Shown here: piece by piece, positions 6,157-6,379 of the stretch
How the letters are laid out: each line of letters opens with the position of its first letter
Position numbering within the stretch: position 1 is the first letter of the stretch
IMG/VR virus record: IMGVR_UViG_2541047776_000006
From: a virus
Lineage: Duplodnaviria > Heunggongvirae > Uroviricota > Caudoviricetes
Direction: 5' to 3' (one strand)
Length of the DNA stretch: 18,553 nucleotides
Notes under the pieces: model-generated
What the model was told of the DNA's origin: nothing
What the model saw: only the letters and a program-made list of their open reading frames with translations
Database searches by the model: none
Made by a program: the position numbers and the translations under genes

Positions 6157-6379
6157 TGTTCACCTTTTTCTATTTTCTCTTTTAATTCATAATGTTAAGG
6201 GGTGAACAGTTTCACAAAAACTATTCACTAACTGTTCACCACTGTTCACCTATAGAGCTCAATAAACAATCAAAAAGGTGAACAGTGAATAGATTGGTGA
6301 ACAGTTTATAAATAACTCTTCACCCTATAATATACTGATATGAAAGATATTTATTACAGGGTGAACAGTGGTGAACAGT
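6157..6379. repeat. Iteron cluster, putative origin of replication
   Basis: Eight perfect copies of GGTGAACA / TGTTCACC, mostly as the 10-mer GGTGAACAGT, at 6157, 6201, 6231, 6241, 6277, 6297, 6360 and 6370, in both orientations, plus degenerate copies and an AT-rich stretch. Lies immediately 3' of the primase gene. TGTTCACC octamers are the alpha-protein binding sites in P4 ori/crr (recalled). Confidence 0.65.

Follow-up and report, generated by a model that had tools for sequence, protein, structure and literature searches.

In satellite phage P4, the crr element is required in cis, yet initiation occurs elsewhere. The P4 alpha protein reportedly binds type I iterons, an observation that is said to go back to Ziegelin et al. 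in 1993. In the GenBank record of P4 (NC_001609), both ori (annotated at 9310-9413) and crr (4291-4590) contain the octamer TGTTCACC/GGTGAACA under the label 'ori type 1 repeat', and crr is placed directly 3' of the alpha gene. For the PICIs, Fillol-Salom et al. (2018, ISME J; PMC6092414) described an origin that directly follows the 3' end of pri-rep and in which sets of iterons flank an AT-rich region. The pri-rep gene of EcCICFT073 together with its ori maintained a temperature-sensitive plasmid in E. coli, and deletion of either part abolished maintenance (PMC6092414). The layout of the PICI origin was stated to be common to no other known replicon, and Pri-Rep was considered only distantly related to alpha (PMC6092414).

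We analyzed one stretch of 18,553 nucleotides (the window, 18.5 kb), using the annotation of an E. coli chromosome (RefSeq NZ_CP031215) that is 100% identical to it. Positions 6147-6379 very probably constitute the replication origin of a PICI of about 9.8 kb, an allele of EcCI224 located between thiM and rcnR, and the adjacent gene very probably encodes its initiator, an alpha-like protein with an SF3 helicase and a winged-helix origin-binding domain (OBD). The island ends are marked by att repeats at 2551-2564, beside thiM, where the repeat is the reverse complement of AGAAATACCCGTAT, and at 12336-12349, beside int and rcnR. Both were identical to the att listed for EcCI224, i.e., AGAAATACCCGTAT with the location 'frmR-thiM' (Table S1, PMC6092414). 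The gene order was int, DUF6387, alpA, Icd-like, DUF4222, initiator, iterons, HEPN, a decayed ClpP-protease/capsid gene and DUF1441. This is the organization of a PICI, with int, alpA and pri-rep in one transcription direction and a PICI-specific att. Neither the RefSeq annotation of the identical sequence nor the Pfam scan of the main ORFs showed psu, sid, delta or epsilon. The preliminary description had likewise noted the absence of psu/delta/sid-type genes; its view of the element as P4-family-like in replication is apt, but the element itself is an E. coli PICI and an allele of EcCI224 rather than an unclassified relative of P4.

Just inside the island ends, an identical 25-mer, TGACCACACAACTGACCACACATTT (a tandem of TGACCACACA), was present at 2633-2657 and 12186-12210; these repeats may be arm-type sites of the integrase. 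A 304-aa ORF at 8825-9739 on the minus strand is probably spurious; in RefSeq, the only genes of this region are a short Icd-like gene on the minus strand and a plus-strand YlcI/YnfO-family gene.

In a motif count, exact matches to GGTGAACA occurred nine times in the window, compared with 0.72 expected by chance, and eight of the nine fell within 221 bp (6157-6377). These eight octamers start at 6157 (minus), 6201 (plus), 6233 (minus), 6243 (minus), 6277 (plus), 6296 (plus), 6360 (plus) and 6370 (plus). The 10-mer GGTGAACAGT was complete in seven of them, and the remaining one carried a single mismatch in the extension. With four degenerate copies at 6147, 6220, 6284 and 6315, the whole cluster (6147-6379) contains 12 iteron-like sites, ordered as two minus, a 36-bp spacer, one plus and three minus, 26 bp, three plus and one minus, a 35-bp spacer and two plus; inside the arrays, neighboring iterons are spaced by approximately 10 bp. 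Between the end of the iteron nearest the gene (6379) and the stop codon of the initiator gene (6392-6394), there is a gap of 12 nt. The preliminary description had reported at least eight perfect octamers in both orientations with an AT-rich spacer within about 220 bp, directly 3' of this gene, and had identified the octamer with the alpha-binding site of P4 ori and crr. The scan of counts and spacing that it proposed, with its symmetric 12-site layout, and the P4 record confirmed each of these statements.

The cluster is a pseudo-palindrome built from two units of about 100 bp. The gene-proximal unit (6277-6379) opens with three direct iterons, of which the second is degenerate; an inverted degenerate iteron follows at 6315-6324 and is separated by a 35-bp AT-rich spacer from two further direct iterons. 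The gene-distal unit (6147-6250) repeats this unit in inverted orientation; alignment of the distal unit with the reverse complement of the proximal unit gave z=12 against shuffles. Both AT-rich spacers, i.e., the 36-bp spacer at 6165-6200 (19% GC) and the 35-bp spacer at 6325-6359 (20% GC), lie between inverted iterons and are candidate DNA-unwinding elements. The center of the pseudo-palindrome (6251-6276, 26 bp) has 23% GC, and an AT-rich tail beyond the distal iterons (6125-6146) is conserved among loci of the GGTGAACA class. The cluster showed a single-stranded DNA fold z-score of -6.6; we rejected a hairpin or cruciform as evidence, as this value is a trivial consequence of the inverted iterons. 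No DnaA boxes were found in or beside the cluster, and the window was not enriched in them.

A run of similar words in AT-rich DNA could be a chance or low-complexity feature, or could serve another protein of the island, as integrase arm sites or AlpA operators, and the 390-bp intergenic region between the HEPN gene and the minus-strand ORF at 6392-8224 is indeed AT-rich (31% GC). However, none of 200 shuffles of the window reached nine exact GGTGAACA copies, the motif is identical to the annotated repeat of P4 ori and crr, the candidate integrase arm repeats have a different sequence and lie at the island ends, and the iteron class tracks the wing segment of the replicase, as described below. 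We consider this explanation extremely improbable.

The ninth exact octamer (7663-7670) lies inside the initiator gene, where it is spelled by T-V-H-H codons. We considered it as the counterpart of an intragenic origin and rejected it, as the synonymous sites were not kept in relatives of the same iteron class. Being a by-product of these codons without such conservation, it is probably due to chance. A near-copy of the octamer with one mismatch is likewise found in the initiator gene, at 7695-7702.

The initiator gene (Pri-Rep, alpha-like) spans 6392-8224 on the minus strand and encodes 610 aa from a GTG; the RefSeq start is the ATG at 8209, giving 605 aa. Residues 502-598 (6431-6721, minus strand) form the C-terminal winged-helix OBD, which matched the structure of the P4 alpha OBD (approximately aa 670-777 of alpha; PDB 1KA8) with E=1.8e-24 in phmmer against PDB and also Pfam Pox_D5. 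Within it, the presumed 'wing' is the segment KRKTKHGLRSNVTL (aa 576-589; 6458-6499, minus strand), the sequence and length of which track the iteron class. The D5_N and SF3 helicase core (approximately aa 167-475; 6800-7726, minus strand) carries the Walker A motif GPGGSGKS and was assigned by Pfam and by a match to 7OLA. D5_N and DUF5906 scored above the Pfam cutoffs, PPV_E1_C and Pox_D5 were also matched, and TIGR01613 scored 92.9 bits, under its cutoff of 108.7 bits. In BLASTP, the protein was 50% identical to P4 alpha aa 320-771, i.e., to its helicase and OBD.

The N-terminus is different. P4 alpha aa 30-299 comprise Zn_Ribbon_Prim and Toprim_3 (Pfam); the window protein has instead an N-terminal domain of about 145 aa (7775-8209, minus strand). 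Its first approximately 150 residues had no Pfam or NCBIfam match, BLASTP against P4 alpha gave no alignment before aa 150, and profile-profile comparison with the P4 primase region in hhalign returned a probability of 0.1%. Of 1.84 billion representative proteins, only 92 clusters contain relatives of the N-terminal 150 residues, and in the full-length hits the domain is likewise N-terminal, in proteins of comparable length. The AlphaFold model of the domain is a small alpha/beta fold (pLDDT 73.5). The window protein thus appears to be without a recognizable primase domain. As the Zn-ribbon/Toprim is absent and the N-terminus lacks family matches, the name 'primase', which the preliminary description had used, is not justified by the sequence, and 'alpha-like initiator/helicase' would be the safer name for the 605/610-aa protein. 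The EcCICFT073 result shows that an initiator without a recognizable primase can suffice for replication in E. coli.

A DUF4222 gene (8206-8505, minus strand) overlaps the start of the initiator gene. It holds the same position in EcCICFT073 and EcCI224 and may therefore act as a conserved initiator partner. The gene is not similar to P4 Cnr, and neither of the two ORFs upstream of the initiator gave a BLASTP alignment to P4 ORF106.

We compared the two units of the cluster with the cis elements of P4. The proximal unit aligned in register with P4 9305-9420, the ori (z=18 against shuffles); both consist of three direct iterons, one inverted iteron, an AT-rich spacer of approximately 35 bp and two direct iterons. 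For the distal unit, the alignment with the reverse complement of P4 ori gave z=16.7, and those with the 120-bp repeats crr1 and crr2, both in direct orientation, gave z=12.8 and 9.3, respectively. A simple assignment of the proximal unit to ori and the distal unit to crr was therefore softened, as the distal unit scored higher with the inverted ori than with crr. As the proximal unit is collinear with ori and the distal unit is similar to crr as well as to inverted ori, the two P4 cis elements appear to be joined here. Judged by these alignments, the window cluster is the likely equivalent of P4 ori and crr in one contiguous pseudo-palindrome. The preliminary description had called the origin P4-type, which agrees with the collinearity of the proximal unit but overlooks that the cluster resembles ori and crr together, not ori alone.

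The P4 crr sits at exactly the same place, directly 3' of alpha, and this raises another explanation: the cluster may be a crr-like auxiliary or copy-control element acting by looping, handcuffing or autoregulation, with initiation elsewhere in the island or nowhere. The alignment of the distal unit with the crr repeats and the continuity of gene and iterons, with no terminator found between them, also fit this explanation. However, no further iteron cluster was present anywhere in the window with one mismatch allowed or within ±6 kb of related loci, the iterons of the proximal unit are collinear with those of P4 ori itself, and deletion of the equivalent EcCICFT073 region abolished plasmid replication (PMC6092414). 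We therefore regard a purely auxiliary element as improbable and favor the origin. Since the gene-adjacent crr of P4 is not its initiation site, position within the cluster alone does not tell the start site; and, given the missing terminator, an additional autoregulatory role at the level of transcription is possible.

Related loci were collected by scanning one genome per species, which yielded 80 loci encoding relatives of the window initiator. In nearly all loci with a recognizable iteron class, a single cluster of approximately 220-250 bp was found 15-75 nt past the stop codon. The layout was conserved in the 20 loci mapped in detail (<< sp > <<< ... >>> < sp >> in gene orientation), and a spacer occupied the same position in all iteron classes, measuring mostly 35 bp and approximately 37-50 bp in a few. 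A distant second cluster was found only in P4 itself in this locus sample (±6 kb flanks). Loci L076-L082 (Pantoea, Erwinia and Serratia plymuthica) had no iteron cluster within ±6 kb when searched with the known motifs and de novo 7-mers; their alpha homologues are the closest to P4 in the primase domain. Among 5426 complete E. coli genomes, the ori of the window was present in 604 and P4-ori-like sequences were present in 1051. By these counts, the split ori/crr form appears to be common in E. coli, though rare in the one-genome-per-species sample.

Five iteron classes were distinguished, i.e., GGTGAACA, GGTAGACA, GGTGGAGA, GYGGACAG and GGTAGATA, and the pairing of class to wing was without exception in 64 classifiable loci. 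In the GGTGAA class, defined as the 50 loci with at least five GGTGAA cores, the wing is 11 residues long and follows the pattern KRKTKHG(I/L)RS. The wings of the other classes are distinct segments of 11, 12 or 16 residues; that of the GGTAGACA class is CTKGPDKGRVITNVLL. At an Escherichia ruysiae locus (L006; gene 6403-7815 and the following 360 bp), the helicase was 97% identical to that of the window and the OBD only 70%, the iterons were GGTAGACA and the wing carried a 5-residue insertion. This locus is a natural recombinant, i.e., a natural specificity swap. P4, with 63% helicase identity to the window, shares its iteron and resembles it in the wing motif. The contrast between L006 and P4 shows that iteron class does not track overall relatedness. 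In nine loci of the GGTGAACA class from several genera, 72% of iteron columns were invariant, compared with 28% of the other cluster columns. The co-variation of wing and iteron, together with this conservation, argues strongly, if indirectly, for recognition of the iterons by the C-terminal domain and for selection acting on the cluster as a whole.

The helicase/OBD core was found joined to three unrelated N-terminal modules, namely the primase of the P4 type, the domain of the window initiator and one further type. A Xenorhabdus island combines a full P4-type primase domain with a contiguous origin and PICI-like gene order. In a 16.5-kb record deposited as an induced prophage (LR881103.1, 'Escherichia phage vB_KppS-Ant'), positions 11193-11968 matched the initiator and origin with 74% identity; the record also carries int, a regulator and capsid, portal, connector and terminase genes. 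Its gene content suggests a capsid-forming PICI that was deposited under the name of a phage.

The initiator of EcCI224 was 99% identical to that of the window and its ori near-identical. The homology ends just past the AT-rich tail of the origin (window 6100-6130), and the distal edge of the origin thus falls at a cargo-exchange junction. Directly after ori, EcCI224 has an intact protease-capsid fusion gene, whereas the window has an AT-rich HEPN-domain gene (5288-6001, plus strand), which may be defense cargo. The ClpP-like prohead protease gene of the window (approximately 4290-4950, minus strand; ORF fragment 4485-4778) is frameshifted, truncated and annotated as a pseudogene in RefSeq; its EcCI224 counterpart encodes an intact 637-aa protease/major-capsid fusion. 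The morphogenesis module of the island is decaying, whereas the replicon is intact. With its decayed morphogenesis genes, the island may no longer be mobilizable.

These changes could also mean that the cluster is the fossil origin of a decayed, non-replicating island whose repeats are intact because the decay is recent; the frameshifted and truncated protease/capsid gene in the identical RefSeq record, intact in EcCI224, and the HEPN cargo gene directly after ori are what such an island would show. On the other hand, the initiator ORF of 605/610 aa is uninterrupted, as are those of int and alpA, and shares 99% identity with its EcCI224 counterpart; none of the eight octamers has a mismatch, and loss of a capsid gene leaves replication unaffected. 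A fossil origin is thus unlikely, and we retain the reading of a functional one. By analogy with EcCICFT073, the island of the window would be expected to replicate autonomously.

A mechanism can be proposed for this origin. After induction of the island, the OBDs of many initiator protomers would bind the GGTGAACA iterons, which are approximately 10 bp apart and on one face of the helix. Binding of these iterons by the window initiator itself is presumed. The inverted iterons bracket the two 35-36-bp spacers of approximately 20% GC, which are the likely sites of melting and loading. Crowding of protomers may cause the helicase to assemble on, melt and self-load at these AT-rich spacers; melting there in the island of the window is presumed as well. 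The loaded SF3 helicase would then unwind the DNA, and the excised circle would be copied by the host polymerase. As the P4-type Zn-ribbon/Toprim primase is absent, priming would come from the host primase or from the N-terminal domain.

The origin is of a kind published in 2018 (PMC6092414) and sits in an allele of a catalogued island; it is therefore already known. An intact replicon of this well-described type helps to annotate the approximately 11% of complete E. coli genomes with the same origin. The five iteron classes and five wing variants provide a ready-made specificity code, which could guide experiments on incompatibility and specificity. As judged from alignment, the shared octamer, the homologous OBD and the units collinear with ori and crr show the PICI and P4 origins to be homologous. 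This homology is the one point that goes beyond, and runs counter to, the view in PMC6092414 of an unshared layout, and is a modest evolutionary insight. The same shared features suggest that the split origin of P4 derives from the contiguous form, and the link offers a simple explanation for the need of P4 for two cis elements. We give about even weight, for and against, to a joint reading in which a contiguous pseudo-palindromic origin is the usual form among alpha-type replicons of islands in Enterobacterales, and P4 ori and its distant crr arose by the splitting of such an origin. The replicons of PICIs and P4 would then be one family, in which three modules (OBD wing with iterons, helicase, and an N-terminal domain of three types) are exchanged by recombination, and the window-type initiator would function with no DnaG-like primase of its own. 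Overall, known biology is refined and no new system is described.

Compared with P4, the window has the identical octamer, a homologous helicase and OBD, and a cluster in the position of crr, directly 3' of the initiator gene. However, ori and crr of P4 are about 4.5-4.7 kb apart, whereas the window has a single contiguous cluster; P4 crr is duplicated as two 120-bp repeats, whereas the window has one pseudo-palindrome; a terminator separates alpha and crr in P4 but not the gene and iterons in the window; P4 alpha has a Zn-ribbon/Toprim primase, which the window initiator lacks; and P4 encodes the copy-number regulator Cnr upstream of alpha, whereas the window has no Cnr homologue. The proposal of P4-like replication is therefore supported by the octamer, the SF3 helicase and the OBD homology, but does not extend to a primase domain, a split ori/crr or Cnr. 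In contrast, the window cluster corresponds to the definition of a Gram-negative PICI origin, lying directly 3' of pri-rep with iterons flanking AT-rich DNA. EcCICFT073 shares the N-terminal domain and the ori layout with the window; its protein is 49% identical, with a different OBD wing, and its iteron is GGTAGAYA instead of GGTGAACA. The origins of SaPIs and Gram-positive PICIs are similar to that of the window in lying 3' of rep with iteron sets flanking an AT-rich region, according to the literature cited in PMC6092414.
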